From NCBI RefSeq assembly GCF_044647545.1, contig NZ_CP172818.1: DNA of 64,000 nucleotides. One strand, 5' to 3'. Each line of letters starts with the position of its first letter. Position 1 is the first letter of the stretch. Both the position numbers and the translations under genes were made by a program. This DNA is from Escherichia coli. GTDB taxonomy: Bacteria; Pseudomonadota; Gammaproteobacteria; Enterobacterales; Enterobacteriaceae. Below are positions 1 to 39,166 of this stretch, one piece after another. The notes below the pieces were generated by a model. The model was not told where the DNA came from. It made no database searches and saw only the letters and a program-made list of their open reading frames with translations.

Positions 1-1871
1 GAATTTTATCAGCGTTCGATTAACGAACCGGAGCAGTTCTGGGCCGAGCAGGCCGTGTATTGACTGGCAGACGCCCTTTACGCAAACGCTCGATCACAGC
101 AATCCGCCGTTTGCCCGTTGGTTTTGTGAAGGCTGAACCAACTTGTGCACAACGCTATCGACCGCTGGCTGGAGAAACAGCCAGAGGCGCTGGCGCTGAT
201 TGCCGTCTCTTCGGAAACAGAAGAAGAGCGCACCTTTACCTTTCGTCAGCTGCATGACGAAGTGAACGCGGTGGCCTCAATGTTGCGTTCATTGGGCGTG
301 CAGCGTGGCGATCGGGTGCTGGTGTATATGCCGATGATTGCCGAAGCGCATATTACTCTGCTGGCCTGCGCGCGCATTGGCGCTATTCACTCGGTGGTGT
401 TTGGGGGATTTGCCTCGCACAGCGTGGCGGCGCGAATTGATGATGCTAAACCGGTGCTGATTGTCTCGGCTGATGCCGGAGCGCGCGGTGGCAAAATCAT
501 TCCCTATAAAAAATTGCTCGACGATGCGATAAGTCAGGCGCAGCACCAGCCACGCCATGTTTTGCTGGTGGATCGCGGGCTGGCGAAAATGGCGCGCGTC
601 AGCGGGCGGGATGTCGATTTCGCGTCGTTGCGCCATCAACACATCGGCGCGCGGGTACCGGTGGCGTGGCTGGAATCCAACGAAACCTCCTGCATTCTCT
701 ACACCTCCGGCACGACCGGCAAACCTAAAGGCGTGCAGCGTGACGTCGGCGGATATGCGGTGGCGCTGGCGACCTCGATGGACACCATTTTTGGCGGCAA
801 AGCGGGCGGTGTGTTCCTTTGTGCTTCGGATATCGGCTGGGTGGTGGGGCGTTCTATATCGTCTACGCGCCGCTGCTGGCGGGGATGGCGACTATCGTTT
901 ACGAAGGATTACCGACCTGGCCGGACTGCGGCGTGTGGTGGAAAATCGTCGAGAAATATCAGGTTAGCCGGATGTTCTCAGCGCCGACCGCCATTCGCGT
1001 GCTGAAAAAATTCCCTACCGCTGAAATTCGCAAACACGATCTCTCGTCGCTGGAAGTGCTCTATCTGGCTGGAGAACCGCTGGACGAGCCGACCGCCAGT
1101 TGGGTGAGCAATACGCTGGATGTGCCGGTGATCGACAACTACTGGCAGACCGAATCCGGCTGGCCGATTATGGCGATTGCTCGCGGTCTGGACGACAGGC
1201 CGACGCGTCTGGGAAGCCCCGGTGTGCCGATGTATGGCTATAACGTGCAGTTGCTTAATGAAGTCACCGGCGAACCGTGTGGCGTCAACGAGAAAGGGAT
1301 GCTGGTGGTGGAAGGGCCGCTGCCGCCGGGGTGTATTCAGACCATCTGGGGCGACGACGGCCGCTTTGTGAAGACTTACTGGTCGCTGTTTTCCCGCCCG
1401 GTGTACGCCACCTTTGACTGGGGCATCCGTGACGCTGACGGTTATCACTTTATTCTCGGGCGCACTGACGATGTGATTAACGTTGCCGGGCATCGGCTGG
1501 GGACGCGCGAGATTGAAGAGAGTATCTCCAGCCATCCGGGCGTTGCCGAAGTGGCGGTGGTTGGGGTGAAAGATGCGCTGAAAGGGCAGGTGGCGGTGGC
1601 GTTTGTCATTCCGAAAGAGAGCGACAGTCTGGAAGATCGTGATGTGGCGCACTCGCAAGAGAAGGCGATTATGGCGCTGGTGGACAGCCAGATTGGCAAC
1701 TTTGGCCGCCCGGCGCACGTCTGGTTTGTCTCGCAATTGCCAAAAACGCGATCCGGAAAAATGCTGCGCCGCACGATCCAGGCGATTTGCGAAGGACGCG
1801 ATCCTGGAGATCTGACGACCATTGATGATCCTGCGTCGTTGGATCAGATCCGCCAGGCGATGGAAGAGTAG
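1..1871 (+). pseudogene. prpE: propionyl-CoA synthetase (AMP-forming acyl-CoA synthetase), 5'-truncated by window edge and frame-disrupted
   Basis: Translation is acyl-CoA synthetase-like (YTSGTTGKPKG motif ~696-731; C-terminal SGKMLRR). Frame is broken: stop at 61-63 in entry frame, TGA at 134-136 in the continuing frame, frame changes near 146-148 and 850-854; ORF fragments 145-1005 and 819-1871 overlap in different frames. Confidence 0.8.
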
Positions 1872-1875
1872 GTTA

Positions 1876-2050
1876 TTGTCGGATGCGTCGCGCGGCGCAT
1901 CCGGCACTGGTGCCGATGCCTGATGCGACGCTGACGCGTCTTATCATGCCTACGGACCTGAACCGTAGGTCGGATAAGGCGCTCGCGCCGCATCCGACAC
2001 CATGCTCAGATGCCTGATGCGACGCTGACGCGTCTTATCAGGCCTACCCA
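1876..2050. repeat. cluster of REP-like palindromic units (BIME-like)
   Basis: Repeated GCCGGATGCG...CGCATCCGAC / GCCTGATGCGACGCTGACGCGTCTTATCAGGCCTAC palindromes typical of enterobacterial REP elements. Confidence 0.6.
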
Positions 2051-2117
2051 CTGTTTTTACACCGATAATTTTTCCCCCACCTTTTTGCACTCATTCATAT
2101 AAAAAATATATTTCCCC

Positions 2118-2133
2118 ACGAAAACGATTGCTT
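2118..2133 (+). promoter_or_regulatory. PurR-box-like operator upstream of codB
   Basis: acgaaaacgattgctt resembles the PurR operator consensus (aCGcAAaCGtTTtCnT); position fits the codBA promoter. Recollection-based. Confidence 0.4.
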
Positions 2134-2199
2134 TTTATCTTCAGATGAATAGAATGCGGCGGATTTTTTGGGTTTCAAACAGCAAAAAGGGGGAATTTC

Positions 2200-3455
2200 G
2201 TGTCGCAAGATAACAACTTTAGCCAGGGGCCAGTCCCGCAGTCGGCGCGGAAAGGGGTATTGGCATTGACGTTCGTCATGCTGGGATTAACCTTCTTTTC
2301 CGCCAGTATGTGGACCGGCGGCACTCTGGAACCGGTCTTAGCTATCATCAATTCTTTCCTCGCAGTTCTCATCGGTAATCTTCTCCTCGGTATTTACACT
2401 TGATTTCTCGGTTACATTGGCGCAAACCGGCCTGACCACTCATCTTCTTGCTCGCTTCTGGTTTGGTGTTAAAGGCTCATGGCTGCCTTCACTGCTACTG
2501 GGCGGAACTCAGGTTGGCTGGTTTGGCGTCGGTGTGGCGATGTTTGCCATTTCGGTGGGTAAGGCAACCGGGCTGGATATTAATTTGCTGATTGCCGTTT
2601 CCGGTTTACTGATGACCGTCACCGTCTTTTTTGGCATTTGGCGCTGACGGTTCTTTCGGTGATTGCGGTTCCGGCTATCGCCTGCCTGGGCGGTTATTCC
2701 GTGTGGCTGGCTGTTAACGGCATGGGCGGCCTGGACGCATTAAAAGCGGTCGTTCCCGCACAACCGTTAATTTCAATCTCGCGCTGGCGCTGGTTGTGGT
2801 CATTTTCTGGTGGGTACGCTCGCCGCTGGCGCCTTTTGTCCGGTTTGGTCGCAATGCCAAACTGGCGGTGCTGGTGGCGATGGTGGCCTTTTTCCTCGGC
2901 AACTGGTTGATGTTTATTTTCGGTGCAGCGGGCGCTGCGGCACTGCGCATGGCGGATATCTCTGATGTGATGATTGCTCAGGGCCTGCTGCTGCCTGCGA
3001 TTGTGGTGCTGGGGCTGAATATCTGGACCACCAACGATAACGCACTCTATGCGTCGGGTTTAGGTTTCGCCAACATTACCGGGATGTCGAGCAAAACCCT
3101 TTCGGTAATCAACGGTATTATCGGTACGGTCTGCGCATTATGGCTGTATAACAATTTTGTCGGCTGGTTGACCTTCCTTTCGGCAGCTATTCCTCCAGTG
3201 GGTGGCGTGATCATCGCCGACTATCTGATGAACCGTCGCCGCTATGAGCACTTTGCGACCACGCGTATGATGAGTGTCAATTGGGTGGCGATTCTGGCGG
3301 TCGCCTTGGGGATTGCTGCAGGCCACTGGTTACCGGGAATTGTTCCGGTCAACGCGGTATTAGGTGGCGCGCTGAGCTATCTGATCCTTAACCCGATTTT
3401 GAATCGTAAAACGACAGCAGCAATGACGCATGTGGAGGCTAACAGTGTCGAATAA
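2200..3455 (+). pseudogene. codB: cytosine permease, frame-disrupted
   Basis: GTG start at 2200 with upstream SD; N-terminus MSQDNNFSQGPVPQSARKG. Gene is split into four ORF fragments (2200-2403, 2417-2647, 2638-2910, 2796-3455): premature TGA 2401-2403 and frame changes near 2404-2430, ~2636 and ~2770. Confidence 0.8.
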
Positions 3456-4728
3456 CGCTTTACAAACAATTATTAACGCCCGGTTACCAGGCGAAGAGGG
3501 GCTGTGGCAGATTCATCTGCAGGACGGAAAAATCAGCGCCATTGATGCGCAATCCGGCGTGATGCCCATAACTGAAAACAGCCTGGATGCCGAACAAGGT
3601 TTAGTTATACCGCCGTTTGTGGAGCCACATATTCACCTGGACACCACGCAAACCGCCGGACAACCGAACTGGAATCAGTCCGGCACGCTGTTTGAAGGCA
3701 TTGAACGCTGGGCCGAGCGCAAAGCGTTATTAACCCATGACGATGTGAAACAACGCGCATGGCAAACGCTGAAATGGCAGATTGCCAACGGCATTCAGCA
3801 TGTGCGTACCCATGTCGATGTTTCGGATGCAACGCTAACTGCGCTGAAAGCAATGCTGGAAGTGAAGCAGGAAGTCGCGCCGTGGATTGATCTGCAAATC
3901 GTCGCCTTCCCTCAGGAAGGGATTTTGTCGTATCCCAACGGTGAAGCGTTGCTGGAAGAGGCGTTACGCTTAGGGGCAGATGTAGTGGGGGCGATTCCGC
4001 ATTTTGAATTTACCCGTGAATACGGCGTGGAGTCGCTGCATAAAACCTTCGCCCTGGCGCAAAAATACGACCGTCTCATCGACGTTCACTGTGATGAGAT
4101 CGATGACGAGCAGTCGCGCTTTGTCGAAACCGTTGCTGCCCTGGCGCACCATGAAGGCATGGGCGCGCGAGTCACCGCCAGCCACACCACGGCAATGCAC
4201 TCCTATAACGGGGCGTATACCTCACGCCTGTTCCGCTTGCTGAAAATGTCCGGTATTAACTTTGTCGCCAACCCGCTGGTCAATATTCATCTGCAAGGAC
4301 GTTTCGATACGTATCCAAAACGTCGCGGCATCACGCGCGTTAAAGAGATGCTGGAGTCCGGCATTAACGTCTGCTTTGGTCACGATGATGTCTTCGATCC
4401 GTGGTATCCGCTGGGAACGGCGAATATGCTGCAAGTGCTGCATATGGGGCTGCATGTTTGCCAGTTGATGGGCTACGGGCAGATTAACGATGGCCTGAAT
4501 TTAATCACCCACCACAGCGCAAGGACGTTGAATTTGCAGGATTACGGCATTGCCGCCGGAAACAGCGCCAACCTGATTATCCTGCCGGCTGAAAATGGGT
4601 TTGATGCGCTGCGCCGTCAGGTTCCGGTACGTTATTCGGTACGTGGCGGCAAGGTGATTGCCAGCACACAACCGGCACAAACCACCGTATATCTGGAGCA
4701 GCCAGAAGCCATCGATTACAAACGTTGA
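3445..4728 (+). CDS. codA: cytosine deaminase
   Basis: GTG start at 3445 ([14 protein letters not shown]...), 427 aa, 11-bp overlap with codB end; amidohydrolase motifs (HIHLD). Confidence 0.9.
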
Positions 4729-4750
4729 ACGACTGGGTTACAGCGAGCTT

Positions 4751-5150
4751 AGTTTATGCCGGATGCGGCGTGAACGCCTTATCCGGCCTACGTAGAGCAC
4801 TGAACTCGTAGGCCTGATAAGCGTAGCGCATCAGGCAATTCCAGCCGCTGATCTGTGTCAGCGGCTACCGTGATTCATTCCCGCCAACAACCGCGCATTC
4901 CTCCAACGCCATGTGCAAAAATGCCTTCGCAGCGGCTGTCTGCCAGCTGTAGTTTATGCCGGATGCGGCGTGAACGCCTTATCCGGCCTACGTAGAGCAC
5001 TGAACTCGTAGGCCTGATAAGCGTAGCGCATCAGGCAATTCCAGCCGCAGACCTGTGTCAGCGGCTACCGTGATTCATTTCCGCCAACAACCGCGCATTT
5101 ATCCAACGCCATGTGCAAAAATGCCTTCGCGGCGGCTGTCTGCCAGCTAT
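4751..5150. repeat. 200-bp direct tandem duplication (two copies, ~96% identical) containing REP-like palindrome and the 3' end of cynR
   Basis: Copy 1 at 4751-4950 and copy 2 at 4951-5150 align base-for-base with ~7 mismatches; copy 2 overlaps the last ~86 bp of cynR. Confidence 0.8.
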
Positions 5151-5964
5151 TTTTCCGCCGCAACAAAACCGCCGTTCTCTCCAGTAGTGGCGGGGCAAGA
5201 GAAATAGCTTTAAGCCCGTCATGTTGTGTGGCAATCGCTGCTGGTAACAATGTGGAAAGGGAAGTGCGGCGAATCAGCTCCAGAACCGCGCTAATTGAGT
5301 TCGCCTCAATGACCACCTGTGGATGTAGCCCCGCTTTCTCGCAGTAGTGGTCAATTTGCTCTCTGGTGGCAAATTCCGCGCTGAGCAGGACCAGTTTTTC
5401 ATCATGCAAGCGACTCAACGCCACCTGTTCATGGACGGCCAGCGGATGATGTTGCGCCACGACTAACGCTAAACTTTCTGTCAGTAAAGGAATTGCCTCC
5501 AGCTCCGGCGAATGCACAGGCGCGAAGGCAATCCCAACGTCCAACTCGTCGCGGCAAAGCATATCCTCGATTTTCTCCTGCGACATTTCCTGTAGCTGGA
5601 GCGTGATGCTGGGATAGCGCGCATAGAAATCCGCCATTAAGGGGCCGATAAAGTAGCTCGTAAAGGTGGGGGTGACGGCGATACGCAGCGATCCTCGCGT
5701 CAGATCGGCAACATCATGAATCGCCCGTTTACCCGCCCCCAGTTCCTGTAACGCCCGGCTGGCGTACTGTCGCCAGACTTCTCCTGCATCAGTGAGACGA
5801 ATCGTTCGCCCGCTACGGTCAAACAGCGGCACGCCTAAACTCTCCTCTAACTGGCGAATCTGCTGGGAAAGCGCAGGTTGGGAGACGTGCAACGCACTGG
5901 CGGCACGGGTGAAGCTGCCATGTTCAGCCACGGCAAGAAAATAATTGATATGTCGAGAGAGCAT
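5065..5964 (-). CDS. cynR: LysR-type transcriptional regulator of the cyn operon
   Basis: 299-aa ORF starting [40 protein letters not shown] (LysR HTH), divergent from cynT. Confidence 0.9.
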
Positions 5965-6072
5965 TCGCAACCTATAAGTAAATCCAATGGAACTCATCAT
6001 AAATGAGACTTTTACCTTATGACAATCGGCGAGTAGTCTGCCTCTCATTCCAGAGACAGACAGAGGTTAACG

Positions 6073-6732
6073 GTGAAAGAGATTATTGATGGATTCCTTA
6101 AATTCCAGCGCGAGGCATTTCCGAAGCGGGAAGCCTTGTTTAAACAGCTGGCGACACAGCAAAGCCCGCGCACACTTTTTATCTCCTGCTCCGACAGCCG
6201 TCTGGTCCCTGAGCTGGTGACGCAACGTGAGCCTGGCGATCTGTTCGTTATTCGCAACGCGGGCAATATCGTCCCTTCCTACGGGCCGGAACCCGGTGGC
6301 GTTTCTGCTTCGGTGGAGTATGCCGTCGCTGCGCTTCGGGTATCTGACATTGTGATTTGTGGTCATTCCAACTGTGGCGCGATGACCGCCATTGCCAGCT
6401 GTCAGTGCATGGACCATATGCCTGCCGTCTCCCACTGGCTGCGTTATGCCGATTCAGCCCGCGTCGTTAATGAGGCGCGCCCGCATTCCGATTTACCGTC
6501 AAAAGCTGCGGCGATGGTACGTGAAAACGTCATTGCTCAGTTGGCTAATTTGCAAACTCATCCATCGGTGCGCCTGGCGCTCGAAGAGGGGCGGATCGCC
6601 CTGCACGGCTGGGTCTACGACATTGAAAGCGGCAGCATCGCAGCTTTTGACGGCGCAACCCGCCAGTTTGTGCCACTGGCCGCTAATCCTCGCGTTTGTG
6701 CCATACCGCTACGCCAACCGACCGCAGCGTAA
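6073..6732 (+). CDS. cynT: carbonic anhydrase (beta class)
   Basis: 219-aa ORF, GTG start; beta-carbonic-anhydrase motifs (CSDSR, HSNCG). Confidence 0.9.
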
Positions 6733-6744
6733 CCTTATTTTTAA

Positions 6745-7233
<489 letters not shown>

Positions 7234-7265
7234 CAGCCATGCGCAACCATCAAAAGACGTTCACG

Positions 7266-8420
7266 ATGCTGCTGGTACTGGTGCTGATTGGTCTTAATAT
7301 GCGACCACTGCTCACCTCCGTCGGGCCACTGCTACCGCAATTGCGCCAGGCGAGCGGAATGAGCTTTAGCGTGGCTGCCCTGTTGACCGCTCTGCCGGTG
7401 GTTACCATGGGCGGGCTGGCGCTGGCCGGAAGCTGGCTTCATCAGCATGTCAGCGAACGTCGCAGTGTCGCCATCAGTCTGTTGCTGATTGCCGTCGGTG
7501 CATTGATGCGTGAGCTTTACCCGCAAAGTGCGCTGCTGCTTAGCAGCGCACTGCTTGGTGGGGTGGGGATCGGCATCATTCAGGCGGTGATGCCTTCGGT
7601 GATTAAACGGCGGTTTCAGCAGCGCACGCCACTGGTGATGGGGCTGTGGTCCGCGGCTCTGATGGGCGGCGGTGGGCTTGGTGCCGCCATAACGCCCTGG
7701 TTAGTTCAACATAGCGAAACCTGGTATCAAACACTCGCCTGGTGGGCGCTGCCTGCCGTTGTTGCGCTCTTTGCCTGGTGGTGGCAAAGCGCCCGCGAGG
7801 TCGCCTCTTCCCACAAGACAACAACCACTCCGGTTCGCGTGGTATTCACTCCCCGCGCGTGGACGCTGGGTGTTTACTTCGGTCTGATTAACGGCGGTTA
7901 CGCCAGCCTGATTGCCTGGTTACCCGCTTTCTATATTGAGATTGGTGCCAGCGCGCAGTACAGCGGTTCCTTACTGGCATTGATGACGCTTGGGCAAGCC
8001 GCAGGAGCTTTGCTGATGCCTGCTATGGCTCGCCATCAGGATCGGCGCAAACTGTTAATGCTGGCGCTGGTGTTACAACTGGTGGGGTTCTGCGGCTTTA
8101 TCTGGCTGCCGATGCAATTGCCGGTATTGTGGGCGATGGTGTGTGGGTTAGGTCTGGGCGGCGCGTTTCCGCTCTGTTTGCTGCTGGCGCTCGATCACTC
8201 TGTGCAACCGGCTATTGCTGGCAAGCTGGTGGCGTTTATGCAGGGAATCGGTTTTATCATCGCCGGGCTTGCCCCGTGGTTTTCTGGCGTGCTGCGTAGT
8301 ATCAGCGGCAATTACCTGATGGACTGGGCATTTCATGCGCTGTGCGTCGTTGGGCTGATGATCATAACCCTGCGTTTTGCACCAGTACGTTTTCCGCAGC
8401 TGTGGGTCAAAGAGGCATGA
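7266..8420 (+). CDS. cynX: MFS cyanate transporter
   Basis: Hydrophobic multi-TM ORF; 384 aa from ATG 7266 (an upstream in-frame ATG at 7239 would give 393 aa). Confidence 0.85.
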   Translation: MLLVLVLIGLNMRPLLTSVGPLLPQLRQASGMSFSVAALLTALPVVTMGGLALAGSWLHQHVSERRSVAISLLLIAVGALMRELYPQSALLLSSALLGGVGIGIIQAVMPSVIKRRFQQRTPLVMGLWSAALMGGGGLGAAITPWLVQHSETWYQTLAWWALPAVVALFAWWWQSAREVASSHKTTTTPVRVVFTPRAWTLGVYFGLINGGYASLIAWLPAFYIEIGASAQYSGSLLALMTLGQAAGALLMPAMARHQDRRKLLMLALVLQLVGFCGFIWLPMQLPVLWAMVCGLGLGGAFPLCLLLALDHSVQPAIAGKLVAFMQGIGFIIAGLAPWFSGVLRSISGNYLMDWAFHALCVVGLMIITLRFAPVRFPQLWVKEA

Positions 8421-8520
8421 TGCGACGCTTGTTCCTGCGCTTTGTTCATGCCGGATGCGGCTAATGTAGATCGCTGAACTTGTAGGCCTGATAAGCGCAG
8501 CGTATCAGGCAATTTTTATA
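8421..8520. repeat. REP-like palindromic element between cynX and lacA
   Basis: GCCGGATGCGGC / GCCTGATAAGCGCAGCG palindromic units. Confidence 0.5.
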
Positions 8521-8522
8521 AT

Positions 8523-9134
8523 TTAAACTGACGATTCAACTTTATAATCTTTGAAATAATAGTGCTTATCCCGGTCGTTTATTTCGCGAATAACCCGACA
8601 AGGAACGCCAGCCGCCACGACGTTTGGTGGAATGTCTTTTGTGACGATACTACCCGCGCCAATAACAGAATTATCCCCGATGGTGACGCCTGGATTAATA
8701 ACCACATGACTTCCGATCCAGACGTTATTGCCAATCGTTATCGGAAAAGAGTACATCTCGCCGTTTTTTCTCAATTCATGGTGTACAGGGTGTCCCGTAA
8801 CGGAAAGAGTAACGTTGGGTGCAATCAGTACGTTATCACCGATTGTTACCGTGTAGTCATCGACAATGGTTAAATTGAAATTTGCATAAAAATTGCGGCC
8901 TATATGGATGTTGGAACCGTAAGAGAAATAGACAGGCGGTTCTACCCAGGCGTTTTCCCCTACCGTGGCAAACATTTCTTTAATCAGGCTTTCTCTTTTT
9001 TCAACTTCTGATGGATGCGAGTGATTAAACTCATACATTAACGTTTTCCCACGAAGTCTTTTTTCCGGTAAGCCTTCGCACATATCGGTAAATAGCTTGC
9101 CTGCTCTTATTCTTTCGGTCATTGGCATGTTCAA
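8523..9134 (-). CDS. lacA: galactoside O-acetyltransferase
   Basis: 203-aa hexapeptide-repeat acetyltransferase; start is TTG (complement at 9132-9134) giving LNMPMTER, consistent with the known unusual lacA start. Confidence 0.9.
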   Translation of the reverse strand: MNMPMTERIRAGKLFTDMCEGLPEKRLRGKTLMYEFNHSHPSEVEKRESLIKEMFATVGENAWVEPPVYFSYGSNIHIGRNFYANFNLTIVDDYTVTIGDNVLIAPNVTLSVTGHPVHHELRKNGEMYSFPITIGNNVWIGSHVVINPGVTIGDNSVIGAGSIVTKDIPPNVVAAGVPCRVIREINDRDKHYYFKDYKVESSV

Positions 9135-9199
9135 TGCGATCACTCCGTTATGATATGTTGGTCGGATAAGGCGCTCGCGCCGCATCCGACATTGATTGC

Positions 9200-10498
<1,299 letters not shown>

Positions 10499-22155: not shown

Positions 22156-22329
22156 TGATGACTGCCGAGAACGTGCATTTTGTATGCCCATCCCAGCACG
22201 ACTGCCGGATGTAAACGCCTTGTTCGGCCTACATTTTCTTCGCCTGTAGGCAGTCATTAAATGGTTCTGATTACGCGGCTGGCAATGTATCAGCCGCGAT
22301 TCACCTGCACTCGCAACGAGGTTCATCTT

Positions 22330-24199: not shown

Positions 24200-24340
24200 G
24201 CAGCACCCACACCAGCCAGCAAGAGCGGATAAGGCGTCCGCCCACCGGCAGCGTGCATCCTGATGACGCTTTGCATCTATCATCCTAGTTTCCAGAAATA
24301 GGATAAGGCGTTCACGCCGCATCCGGCAGTCGTGCACTAT
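24200..24340. repeat. REP-like palindromic elements between yaiL and frmB
   Basis: GGATAAGGCGTTCACGCCGCATCCGGCAG-type units. Confidence 0.5.
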
Positions 24341-27646: not shown

Positions 27647-28203
27647 TTAATCTCCTGTACGGATAAGTTCTTGTCGGAGTGAATAAGTTCCGGTAGGTAA
27701 ATTACGTTCTACAATCACGCGCGGGCCAAGTTGCGTGTTCGGGGAAATAATTCGCCCAGGCAAAATAATAACTTGTACGCCAAGGCGTGAACGCTGTCCG
27801 ATATAACAACCTAATTTATCGCATCCGGTAGCGATAATTCCCTCTGGAGTTCGAACAGACACGGGCTGTTCATCCAGACGATGATTACTGGTACGTACTT
27901 GTGCGCCCAAATATGCCTGGTTTGCGACTACCGAGTCGGCAATAAAACATTGCGGACCAATCGTTGCTTCCGCTTCAATAACCGCATTTTTAATTTCGGT
28001 GGCGAAACCAATTTTTACGCCATTGCTGATTATTGTGCCAGGACGAATAAACGAAATTACCTATCAGGCAGTTTGCGCCAATCACTACCGGACCCTGAAT
28101 AACGGCACCGTGACAAATACGGGTATTCGCGCCGATAACAACTTCACCTGCAGTTTCATCAATAATTACCTGGTCTGCAATCTGAATATTTTTCTCTTTA
28201 ACA
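27647..28203 (-). pseudogene. yaiX: hexapeptide-repeat acyltransferase, frameshifted
   Basis: Hexapeptide repeats (VIGANTRICHGAVIQGPVVIGANCLIGN) continue in another frame (IRPGTIISNGVKIGFA...) with the switch near 28040-28060; no IS element at the break. Confidence 0.7.
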
Positions 28204-33263: not shown

Positions 33264-34111
33264 GTGAACGTCTGAGCATTACCCCGCTGGGGCCGTATAT
33301 TGGCGCACAAATTTCGGGTGCCGACCTGACGCGCCCGTTAAGCGATAATCAGTTTGAACAGCTTTACCATGCGGTGCTGCGCCATCAGGTGGTGTTTCTG
33401 CGCGATCAAGCTATTACGCCGCAGCAGCAACGCGCGCTGGCCCAACGTTTTGGCGAACTGCATATTCATCCTGTTTACCCTCATGCCGAAGGGGTTGACG
33501 AGATCATCGTCCTGGATACTCATAACGATAATCCGCCGGATAACGACAACTGGCATACCGATGTGACATTTATTGAAACGCCACCCGCAGGGGCGATTCT
33601 GGCGGCAAAAGAGTTACCCTCGACCGGCGGCGATACGCTCTGGACCAGCGGTATTGCGGCCTATGAGGCGCTCTCTGTTCCCTTCCGCCAGCTGCTGAGC
33701 GGGTTGCGTGCGGAGCATGATTTCCGTAAATCGTTCCCGGAATACAAATACCGCAAAACCGAGGAGGAGCATCAACGCTGGCGCGAGGCGGTCGCGAAAA
33801 ATCCGCCGTTGCTACATCCGGTGGTGCGAACGCATCCGGTGAGCGGTAAACAGGCGCTGTTTGTGAATGAAGGCTTTACCACGCGAATTGTTGATGTCAG
33901 CGAGAAAGAGAGCGAAGCCTTGTTAGGTTTTTTGTTTGCCCATATCACCAAACCGGAGTTTCAGGTGCGCTGGAGCTGGCAACCGAATGATATTGCGATT
34001 TGGGATAACCGTGTGACTCAGCACTATGCCAATGCGGATTACCTGCCACAGCGGCGGATTATGCATCGGGCGACGATTCTTGGGGATATTCCGTTTTATC
34101 GGGCGGGGTAA
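33260..34111 (+). CDS. tauD: taurine dioxygenase (alpha-ketoglutarate dependent)
   Basis: 283-aa ORF, 4-bp overlap with tauC; HxD...H iron-binding residues (WHTDVTF). Confidence 0.9.
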
Positions 34112-35110: not shown

Positions 35111-37124
35111 GGTCTGCCTGATGTTTGTGGAATCGAGGGGCATAGTATACCTGAAGCAGGGTGGGGATGTTTTACGAAAGTTGTCGCGATGTTGACAAGA
35201 AGAGAATGAATGAGAGGCCAGGACATCTTTGTAATAGAAATAGCAATAATTTCATATTCACTGAAAATATTTTTAATTTTTATTTATAGTCATGGATTAT
35301 TGTTTTTGGGGATTTGGTTGCGTTATCAAAAACGGAATGATTTAAAGTTCATTGGTTATTGATAGATTATTTGTCTGGTTTGTGTGTTTGATATTTTAAA
35401 TGCATATGCTTTAAAAATGGAAATCCTGTTAACTTGTTGAAACATTAAGCCTTTATCAATTTTTTCTTTGTGTGTTCCTCCGTGCTTTATATATGTCCGT
35501 AACCGGACTTCGGGGAAAGAATAATTGAACCATTCCTCAATAACGCCGCATAATCGTTAGCGCGAAACATAATATGTTTTCTATGCATTGATAATTGATG
35601 GATCAACTTATTACGTCCCTGAGGAGGGATGACAAATGCACTCCTGGAAAAAGAAACTTGTAGTATCACAATTAGCATTGGCTTGCACTCTGGCTATCAC
35701 CTCTCAGGCTAATGCAGCGACCTACTGATACCTGGACTTATATCGATAATCCCGTTACAGCACTTGATTGGGATCATATGGATAAGGCAGGCACTGTAGA
35801 TGGCAACTATGTAAACTATAGTGGTTTTGTCTATTACAACAACACCAATGGTGATTTCGATCAGTCCTTTAACGGCGATACCGTTAACGGCACGATCTCA
35901 ACCTATTATTTGAACCATGATTATGCAGACAGTACTGCTAATCAGCTTGATATCAGTAATTCAGTGATTCACGGTTCGATTACTTCTATGCTGCCTGGCG
36001 GTTATTATGATCGTTTTGATGCAGATGGTAATAATCTGGGTGGATATGATTTTTACACTGATGCGGTTGTTGATACACACTGGCGTGATGGTGATGTTTT
36101 CACTTTGAACATTGCTAACACTACTATTGATGATGATTATGAAGCTCTTTACTTCACTGATTCTTATAAAGATGGTGATGTAACCAAGCACACAAATGAG
36201 ACATTTGATACAAGTGAAGGCGTTGCTGTTAATCTTGATGTAGAAAGTAACATCAATATTTCCAATAACTCCCGCGTTGCAGGTATTGCATTATCTCAAG
36301 GTAATACTTACAACGAAACCTACACTACCGAATCTCATACTTGGGATAACAATATCTCTGTAAAAGATTCCACAGTGACTTCGGGTTCAAATTATATCCT
36401 GGATAGCAATACTTATGGCAAAACTGGTCACTTTGGCAATTCTGATGAACCGAGTGATTATGCTGGCCCGGGTGATGTTGCAATGTCCTTTACTGCTTCA
36501 GGTTCCGACTATGCGATGAAGAACAATGTATTCCTCAGCAATTCAACGCTGATGGGTGATGTTGCCTTTACCAGCACCTGGAATAGTAATTTTGATCCGA
36601 ATGGTCATGATTCCAACGGTGACGGGGTGAAAGATACCAACGGGGGTTGGACTGATGATAGCCTCAACGTTGATGAACTAAATCTCACTCTCGATAACGG
36701 AAGCAAGTGGGTTGGTCAGGCAATTTATAACGTTGCTGAAACGTCAGCAATGTATGATGTTGCTACAAACAGCCTTACTCCTGATGCAACATATGAAAAC
36801 AATGACTGGAAACGTGTTGTTGATGACAAGGTCTTCCAGAGCGGTGTATTTAACGTAGCGTTGAATAACGGTTCTGAATGGGATACTACAGGTCGTTCCA
36901 TCGTTGATACCTTGACAGTTAATAATGGTTCTCAGGTTAATGTTTCGGAATCTAAATTAACTTCAGATACTATCGATTTAACTAACGGTTCTTCGCTGAA
37001 CATTGGTGAAGATGGCTACGTTGATACCGATCATCTGACTATTAACTCCTACAGTACTGTTGCGTTGACCGAATCTACTGGGTGGGGGGCTGATTGATCC
37101 TACCCACGTAATATGGACACAGGC

Positions 37125-37991
37125 CTAAGCGAGGTTCTTGTTTTCAAATTGTTCCGGACTGAGGCCGCCACACCAACTGTGCCGCCGCCACCGATTGTAA
37201 TCACATTCGATATAATTAAACACCGTTGCCCGCATTATTTCCCGGCTGATAAAGTGTTCTCCATGGATACATTCCACTTTCAGCGAATGAAAGAAGCTTT
37301 CCACGCAGGCATTATCGTAGCAGCAACCTTTTGCGCTCATACTTCCACGCAGATTATGCCGCTTCAGTTGCGCCTGATAATCTGCTGAACAGTACTGGCC
37401 TCCACGGTCCGTGTGAACGATAACGTTCCGGGGCCTCTTACGCCGCCACAGCGCCATCTGCAGGGCATCGCAGGCCAGTTGCGCCGTCATGCGTGGCGAC
37501 ATTGACCAGCCAATAACGGCACGTGACCACAGGTCAATGACCACTGCCAGATACAGCCAGCCTTCATCTGTACGTAAGTACGTGATGTCTCCTGCCCACT
37601 TCTGGTTCGGGCCACTGGCGTAAAAATCCTGCTCCAACAGATTTTCTGACACAGGCAGGCCGTGTGCGCGGTAGCTGACCGGGCTGAACTTCCGGGAGGC
37701 CTTTGCCCTCAGTCCCTGACGGCGCAGGCTTGCCGCCACGGTTTTTACGTTAAAGGGGTAACCCTGAGCACGCAGTTCATCCGTCAGGCGTGGGGCACCG
37801 TAACGCTGTTTTGACCGGGTAAAAGCCGCGAGGACAACGCTGTCGCAGTGTTGGCGGAACTGCTGACGCGTGCTTATCCTTGTCCGCCGCTGACACCACG
37901 TATACCAGCCGCTGCGGGCCACCCGGAGCACGCGGCACATTGCTTTGATGCTGAACTCAGCCTGATGTTTTTCAATAAAGACATACTTCAT
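37125..37991 (-). CDS. insF: IS3 transposase OrfB (DDE integrase domain), expressed with OrfA by -1 frameshifting
   Basis: 288-aa ORF overlapping insE by 4 bp (ATGA); DDE/integrase-like translation. Confidence 0.9.
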
Positions 37992-38296
37992 TTCAGGCGC
38001 TTCGCGAAGTATGTCGCGGCCTTTTGGAGGATAGCCAGCTCTTCATCCCGTTCTGCCAGCTGGCGTTTGAGACGTGCAATCTCGGTAGACATCTCCAGTT
38101 CACGTTCAGAAGACGTCTGCTGATTTTGCTGTTTACTGCGCCAGTTGTAGAGTTGTGATTCATACAGGCTGAGTTCACGGGCTGCGGCAGTAACACCGAT
38201 GCGTTCAGCAAGCTTCAGGGCTTCACTGCGAAATTCAGGCGAATGCTGTTTACGGGGTTTTTTACTGGTTGATACTGTTTTTGTCATGTGAGTCAC
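37988..38296 (-). CDS. insE: IS3 transposase OrfA (HTH)
   Basis: 102-aa [58 protein letters not shown]... Confidence 0.9.
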
Positions 38297-39166
38297 CTCT
38301 GACTGAGAGTTTACTCACTTAGCCGCGTGTCCACTATTGCTGGGTAAGATCAGATTACAACCTGTACGCCAATACTATCACCGTAACTAACGGCGGTGTA
38401 TTGGATGTGAACGTTGATCAGTTCGATACTGAAGCTTTCCGTACTGACAAACTGGAACTGACCAGCGGCAACATCGCTGACCATAACGGTAACGTAGTAT
38501 CTGGTGTGTTCAATATCGAAAGCAACCGCTTCGTACTTGATGCCGACCTGACCAACGACCGTACCAACGATACTACCAAGTCAAACTACGGTTATGGTTT
38601 AATCGCAATGAACTCTGATGGTCACCTGACCATTAACGGTAACGGCGATAACGACAACACTGCTTCTATCGAAGCTGGTCAGAACGAAGTTGATAACAAC
38701 GGTGACCATGTTGCAGCTGCAACCGGTAACTACAAAGTTCGTATCGACAACGCTACTGGTGCTGGTTCTATCGCTGACTACAACGGCAACGAGCTGATCT
38801 ACGTTAACGACAAAAACAGCAACGCGACCTTCTCTGCTGCTAACAAAGCTGACCTGGGTGCATACACCTATCAGGCTGAACAGCGCGGTAACACCGTTGT
38901 TCTGCAACAGATGGAGCTGACCGACTACGCTAACATGGCGCTGAGCATCCCGTCTGCGAACACCAATATCTGGAACCTGGAACAAGACACCGTTGGTACT
39001 CGTCTGACCAACTCTCGTCATGGCCTGGCTGATAACGGCGGCGCATGGGTAAGCTACTTCGGTGGTAACTTCAACGGCGACAATGGCACCATCAACTATG
39101 ATCAGGATGTTAACGGCATCATGGTCGGTGTTGATACCAAAATTGACGGTAACAACGCTAAGTGGA

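Follow-up and report, generated by a model that had tools for sequence, protein, structure and literature searches.

Clustered frameshift and nonsense lesions in prpE and codB of one Escherichia coli assembly are most likely consensus errors

Introduction

The genes prpE and codB are dispensable in Escherichia coli, and both do decay in certain lineages of E. coli and Shigella that are restricted to a host. In K-12 MG1655 both genes (b0335 and b0336, respectively) are intact and encode proteins of 628 aa (PrpE) and 419 aa (CodB). The stretch of E. coli DNA analysed here, a window of 64 kb, contains the same two genes in the same order and with the same flanks as K-12 MG1655, but both copies are broken. 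A preliminary description of this DNA had proposed either locally poor sequence or genuine decay as the reason. Here we compare the lesions with related genomes and with the DNA that surrounds them.

Results

Layout and Mosaic Structure of the Window

The gene content of the window (prpE-codBA-cyn-lac-mhp...sbcDC-phoB) follows the order seen in K-12, and position 1 corresponds to codon 5 of prpE. Positions 1–3500 were aligned to the best database match (strain 33-6) and to K-12 MG1655. Variants were called over the whole 64 kb against four references (K-12 MG1655, 33-6, EFF60, and MS6198), and a difference is referred to as private when it departs from all four.

The window is a mosaic in which the left 9.6 kb belong to one haplotype and the right 55 kb to another, with the switch located inside lacY (9302–9577). 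Positions 1–9577 represent a phylogroup-A-type haplotype. Within it, positions 1–1000 are nearest to strain 33-6 and not to K-12, while 2947–9577 (6,631 bp) shows 0 differences, that is 100% identity, to both K-12 MG1655 and the natural isolate EFF60. As the identity holds base for base, the haplotype of this interval must have split from K-12/EFF60 very recently. MS6198 departs from the window at 217 sites within the same interval. Outside the lesions the 1–2946 segment also matches common haplotypes. Positions 9302–64000 are virtually those of E. coli MS6198 except for a few departing spots and a replaced yaiT segment (35726–38511), and 38501–64000 shows no difference at all from that strain. 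The combination of the left and right haplotypes was found in no complete genome of the collection, the best match being 98.6% over 2951–27900.

Lesions in prpE, codB, and the Region Between Them

The first sub-cluster of lesions in prpE consists of a 2-bp deletion at 54/55, a C>T change at 56 (R24C), a nonsense change at 134 (CGA>TGA) that replaces R50 by a stop, and a 1-bp deletion at 147 (Table 1). The net shift across 54–147 is -3, so the reading frame is back after 147. It is lost again with the deletion at 854, from which the frame remains shifted through the rest of the gene. A tblastn search of the window with the PrpE of MS6198 gave two pieces with a stop. In the intergenic region the change at 1896 is common to MS6198, while the 1-bp deletion at 1909 and the change at 1988 are private.

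The lesions in codB begin with a -1 at 2327, which is paired with a +1 at 2357. They continue with a nonsense change at 2402 (TCA>TGA), a 2-bp deletion at 2424–2426 (A5 to A3), and 1-bp deletions at 2639 and 2769, followed by a group of closely spaced indels (-2 at 2799, -1 at 2805, -1 at 2809, and +4 at 2831–2834). The zone 2327–2946 also has 12 substitutions, six of which are G↔C swaps. Lesion density in codB is highest at 2769–2834, and the last lesion is found at 2946, still inside the gene. Where it is free of lesions, codB has the K-12 sequence, as does the DNA that follows it on the right.

Alignment to the four references recovered the frame-breaking events at all eight positions that the preliminary description had listed for prpE and codB, and the K-12 genes proposed there for comparison are free of them. 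Further lesions were added to that list, namely the -1 at 1909, the 2327/2357 pair, the indels at 2799–2834, and 14 missense and 2 synonymous substitutions.

Table 1. Features of the prpE-codB region and its clean flank (window coordinates).
Feature	Position	Strand	Remarks
prpE (propionate--CoA ligase) remnant	1..1871	+	From codon 5; broken into ORFs 145-1005 and 819-1871
First sub-cluster	54..147	+	Private vs all four references
Second sub-cluster	817..854	+	T>C at 817, A>G at 851, 1-bp deletion at 854; private vs four references
Isolated private synonymous substitutions in prpE	1130..1475	+	C>G at 1130, A>G at 1475
prpE-codB intergenic region	1872..2199		REP-like palindromes; changes at 1896, 1909, 1988
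codB (cytosine permease) remnant	2200..3455	+	ORFs 2200-2403, 2417-2647, 2638-2910, 2796-3455
Densest lesion zone	2327..2946	+	~24 lesion sites in 620 bp
Clean flank	2947..9577		3' codB, codA, cynR, cynTSX, lacA, part of lacY; neutral-clock control

Clustering and Spectrum of the Lesions

The clustering of lesions in the first 2.9 kb, already noted in the preliminary description, is very strong when private differences are counted against the four references. Positions 1–2946 have 13 indel events and 20 substitutions that are private, the latter including two nonsense changes. Across the ≈58 kb aligned elsewhere in the window, the private differences amount to 4 indel sites and 519 substitutions. 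The difference in indel frequency (13 in 2,946 bp vs 4 in ≈58 kb; Fisher p = 1.5e-14) is matched by a difference in the indel:substitution ratio (13:20 vs 4:519; p = 1.8e-14). Of the 20 substitutions in 1–2946, 7 are G↔C transversions, compared with 31 of the 519 elsewhere (p = 2e-4). Deletions account for 11 of the 13 indel events, and 16 of the 18 coding private substitutions change or stop the protein (14 missense, 2 nonsense; the other 2 are synonymous). Both the density and the spectrum are thus unlike natural polymorphism, which is what consensus errors would be expected to give. The sub-clusters end near 147, 854, 1988, and 2946, with 275–670 bp of clean sequence after each of them.

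The clean flank gives a neutral clock for the lesions. K-12 and the window differ 24 times within 1989–2946 (958 bp), 23 of these differences being private, and 0 times within the adjoining 2947–9577 (Fisher p = 2e-22). In a pseudogene the lesion load should be proportional to the neutral divergence of the neighbouring DNA, but here 24 changes in 958 bp stand beside 0 in 6,631 bp. Neutral drift of a pseudogene could not give 2.5% lesions in 958 bp and none in the adjacent 6.6 kb. Flanks that lack a matching divergence, as seen for 2947–9577, are in turn a property expected of consensus errors.

Search for the Lesions in Related Genomes, Plasmids, and Proteins

The lesions are common to 0 of the 5,426 complete E. 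coli genomes searched. The best match over 1–3500 is 98.8% identical, so all lesions remain as differences, and the shortfall corresponds exactly to the lesion load. The lesion-free interval 149–850 is still 3 mismatches away from the nearest genome. A lesion-spanning 51-mer was absent from 100,044 species-representative genomes. At the protein level, the broken ORF products of 286, 219, and 67 aa are each found on exactly one contig (4,499,902 bp) among ≈15 billion proteins, and in the protein collection the 67-aa fragment of CodB forms a cluster with no other member.

Assemblies that encode an identical LacZ belong to E. coli (MS6198, ECONIH1, and others) and have full-length PrpE (628 aa) and CodB (419 aa). 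The differences are therefore private to one assembly and absent in its close relatives, as consensus errors would be. Lesions of a pseudogene should be inherited by clonal relatives, and no such inheritance was seen among the complete genomes, the identical-LacZ assemblies, or the protein collection. K-12 F' plasmids with codB (e.g., NZ_CP014273.1) have an intact codB with none of the lesions.

Two further observations were made on these relatives and plasmids. The identical-LacZ relatives have an IS1 inserted in lacY, and in two of their assemblies a deletion from lacY to the yahC/bet region has removed lacA, cyn, codBA, and prp, which makes this a structurally unstable neighbourhood in that lineage. 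Through the K-12 F' plasmids with an intact codB-lac region, DNA of K-12 type might reach other strains or end up in mixed assemblies.

Other Genes and Error-Like Spots in the Window

The preliminary description had also regarded the remaining 61 kb as intact and the other housekeeping genes as uninterrupted. The latter is fully true. The former applies to 54 of the 56 further genes mapped from MS6198, which are full length in the window, with a yaiX-like acetyltransferase (frameshift) and yaiT/ehaB (IS3 insertion) as the exceptions.

The acetyltransferase gene is frameshifted by two 1-bp deletions at 28053–28054. These deletions lie ≈8 bp or less from the K-12 IS2A point, and their flanks are MS6198-like. 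They could be a coincidence, an error, or the scar of a joined contig break. The yaiT segment (35726–38511, 2.8 kb) consists of a K-12-type yaiT with IS3 (≈37092–38349) that is 100% identical to K-12, and this allele replaces ehaB, an autotransporter gene of 3 kb that is intact in MS6198. An IS3 in yaiT was likewise seen in BS-04, a natural isolate, where the insertion point appears to be the same.

Three other spots were found. In the yaiL-fghA intergenic region, ≈100 bp (24203–24300) of private, garbled REP/BIME sequence resemble natural REP copies riddled with 1-bp deletions, and the best match among the 5,426 genomes is 84–91%. A REP located between mhpE and mhpT has lost 5 bp (GCGGC) at 22210, and ≈15 nt are missing at 34111 from the tauD/hemB hairpin; both are private relative to MS6198. 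To the right of 9302, the yaiT segment apart, the few departures from MS6198 are all base losses in hairpin-forming DNA. REP and hairpin sequences of this type are the kind of place where consensus building fails.

Discussion

That the lesions exist, are private and tightly clustered, have a non-biological spectrum, and border on a neighbour with zero divergence was established directly. Judged from these sequence comparisons, it is very likely that the lesions in prpE and codB are consensus errors of one assembly and would not be mutations in the living strain. In that case both genes would be unremarkable and unbroken in the strain, with a common haplotype of phylogroup-A type. The cause would probably be a stretch with little or poor read data, for instance single-pass gap-closing reads or an unpolished segment of low coverage, and the errors would end at 2946 as the point where well-supported sequence resumes. 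The sub-clusters followed by clean runs look as if single reads had been placed one after another, each losing quality toward its tail. Since the source contig is 4.5 Mb long and the window perhaps an interior cut, the zone of lesions may extend further upstream than position 1, toward prpD. Only 2 of the 13 indels are located in homopolymers. Nanopore methylation-motif errors and pure homopolymer errors were rejected, no particular sequencing technology being indicated. One point against errors is that a RefSeq accession (WP_400165115.1) exists for the 219-aa CodB fragment, and the record has thus passed routine quality control. One or two of these lesions may also represent a real inactivation of prpE and/or codB.

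Genuine decay, where dead prpE and codB have gathered neutral lesions after selection was lost, as in host-restricted lineages, was the other option in the preliminary description. Both genes are non-essential and adjacent, and each of them is broken many times. Inactivation is also seen in accessory genes elsewhere in the window, where IS3 interrupts yaiT and the yaiX-like gene is frameshifted, and the IS1-driven loss of lacY and its neighbours in the identical-LacZ relatives points to a decay-prone neighbourhood. However, decay would have to explain 24 changes in 958 bp next to 6.6 kb with no neutral divergence, together with an abundance of indels and G↔C changes that sets the spectrum apart from the natural E. 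coli polymorphism of the same window. It would further have to explain why the lesions occur in none of the 5,426 complete genomes, why the three broken products that were looked up are on no other contig, and why the damage ends sharply at 2946 inside codB without covering the whole gene. We regard decay as improbable. The two options of the preliminary description thus part ways, with locally poor sequence being favoured and decay disfavoured by the zero divergence next door, the odd spectrum, the restriction to one contig, and the intact genes of relatives.

Even less probable, and hardly to be expected, are real lesions of unusual origin. Here low-fidelity DNA (an error-prone PCR product or uncorrected synthetic DNA) would have entered the chromosome of a clinical-lineage E. 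coli, or localized hypermutation would have acted at the edge of a recently recombined prp-lac segment. The lesion zone does form the left end of a ≈9.6-kb haplotype block that is distinct from the MS6198-like remainder, and K-12 F' plasmids bear exactly this region and could deliver foreign DNA. Oligonucleotide synthesis errors are deletion-biased, similar to the lesions seen here. Yet no known in vivo process yields ≈1.2% lesions, one third of them indels, over 3 kb, and vector, scar, and marker sequences are absent. With an unusual origin, ≈1% of the bases would be damaged over 3 kb next to imported DNA without a flaw, as the remaining block (2947–9577) has no defect. The garbled REP and hairpin spots, which are found far from the block, fit a technical cause better.

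Several other candidates were considered. Programmed frameshifting or recoding was rejected as the homologs are uninterrupted and have no single conserved shift site, while the window has 13 scattered indels and 2 stops. A Shigella origin disagrees with the E. coli identity of the identical-LacZ lineage and with the intact lacY. The lesions are private relative to all four references and can be neither MS6198 alleles nor a blend of K-12 and MS6198, and they do not derive from a plasmid or F' record, whose codB copies are without them. A consensus guided by the K-12 reference, or a hybrid with K-12, is suggested by the two K-12-identical patches and the 2-bp scar by the IS2A site, but was rejected as unproven. 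EFF60 is equally identical over 2947–9577, and BS-04 apparently shares the IS3 site in yaiT. Moreover, 1–1000 is not K-12-like, and the BIME between mhpE and mhpT follows the structure of MS6198 and not that of K-12.

If the lesions are consensus errors, as we consider very likely, they carry little biological weight, the strain most likely having a normal prpE and codB. As a biological feature the prpE-codB lesions are most likely not real. Their use is as a quality flag, showing that the record holds at least one unreliable 3-kb stretch and several small spots in REP and hairpin DNA. The apparent pseudogenes, including the 219-aa CodB fragment in RefSeq, are unfit as evidence of gene loss and should not enter pan-genome or pseudogene counts.

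The lesions share with the pseudogenes of host-restricted E. coli and Shigella that dispensable catabolic and transport genes are hit by frameshifts and stops, and that yaiT and the yaiX-like gene are inactive. Natural pseudogenes of such age differ in usually having an IS or no more than a few lesions, which are shared by clonal relatives, and a transition-rich spectrum that matches the neutral divergence nearby. Compared with typical weak spots of assemblies, the affected stretch is unusual in being unique coding DNA and not a repeat. It nevertheless resembles assembly consensus errors in its dense and deletion-biased indels, its atypical substitutions, its short extent within one record, and its perfect flanks, and the same record is also troubled in hairpin and REP DNA.
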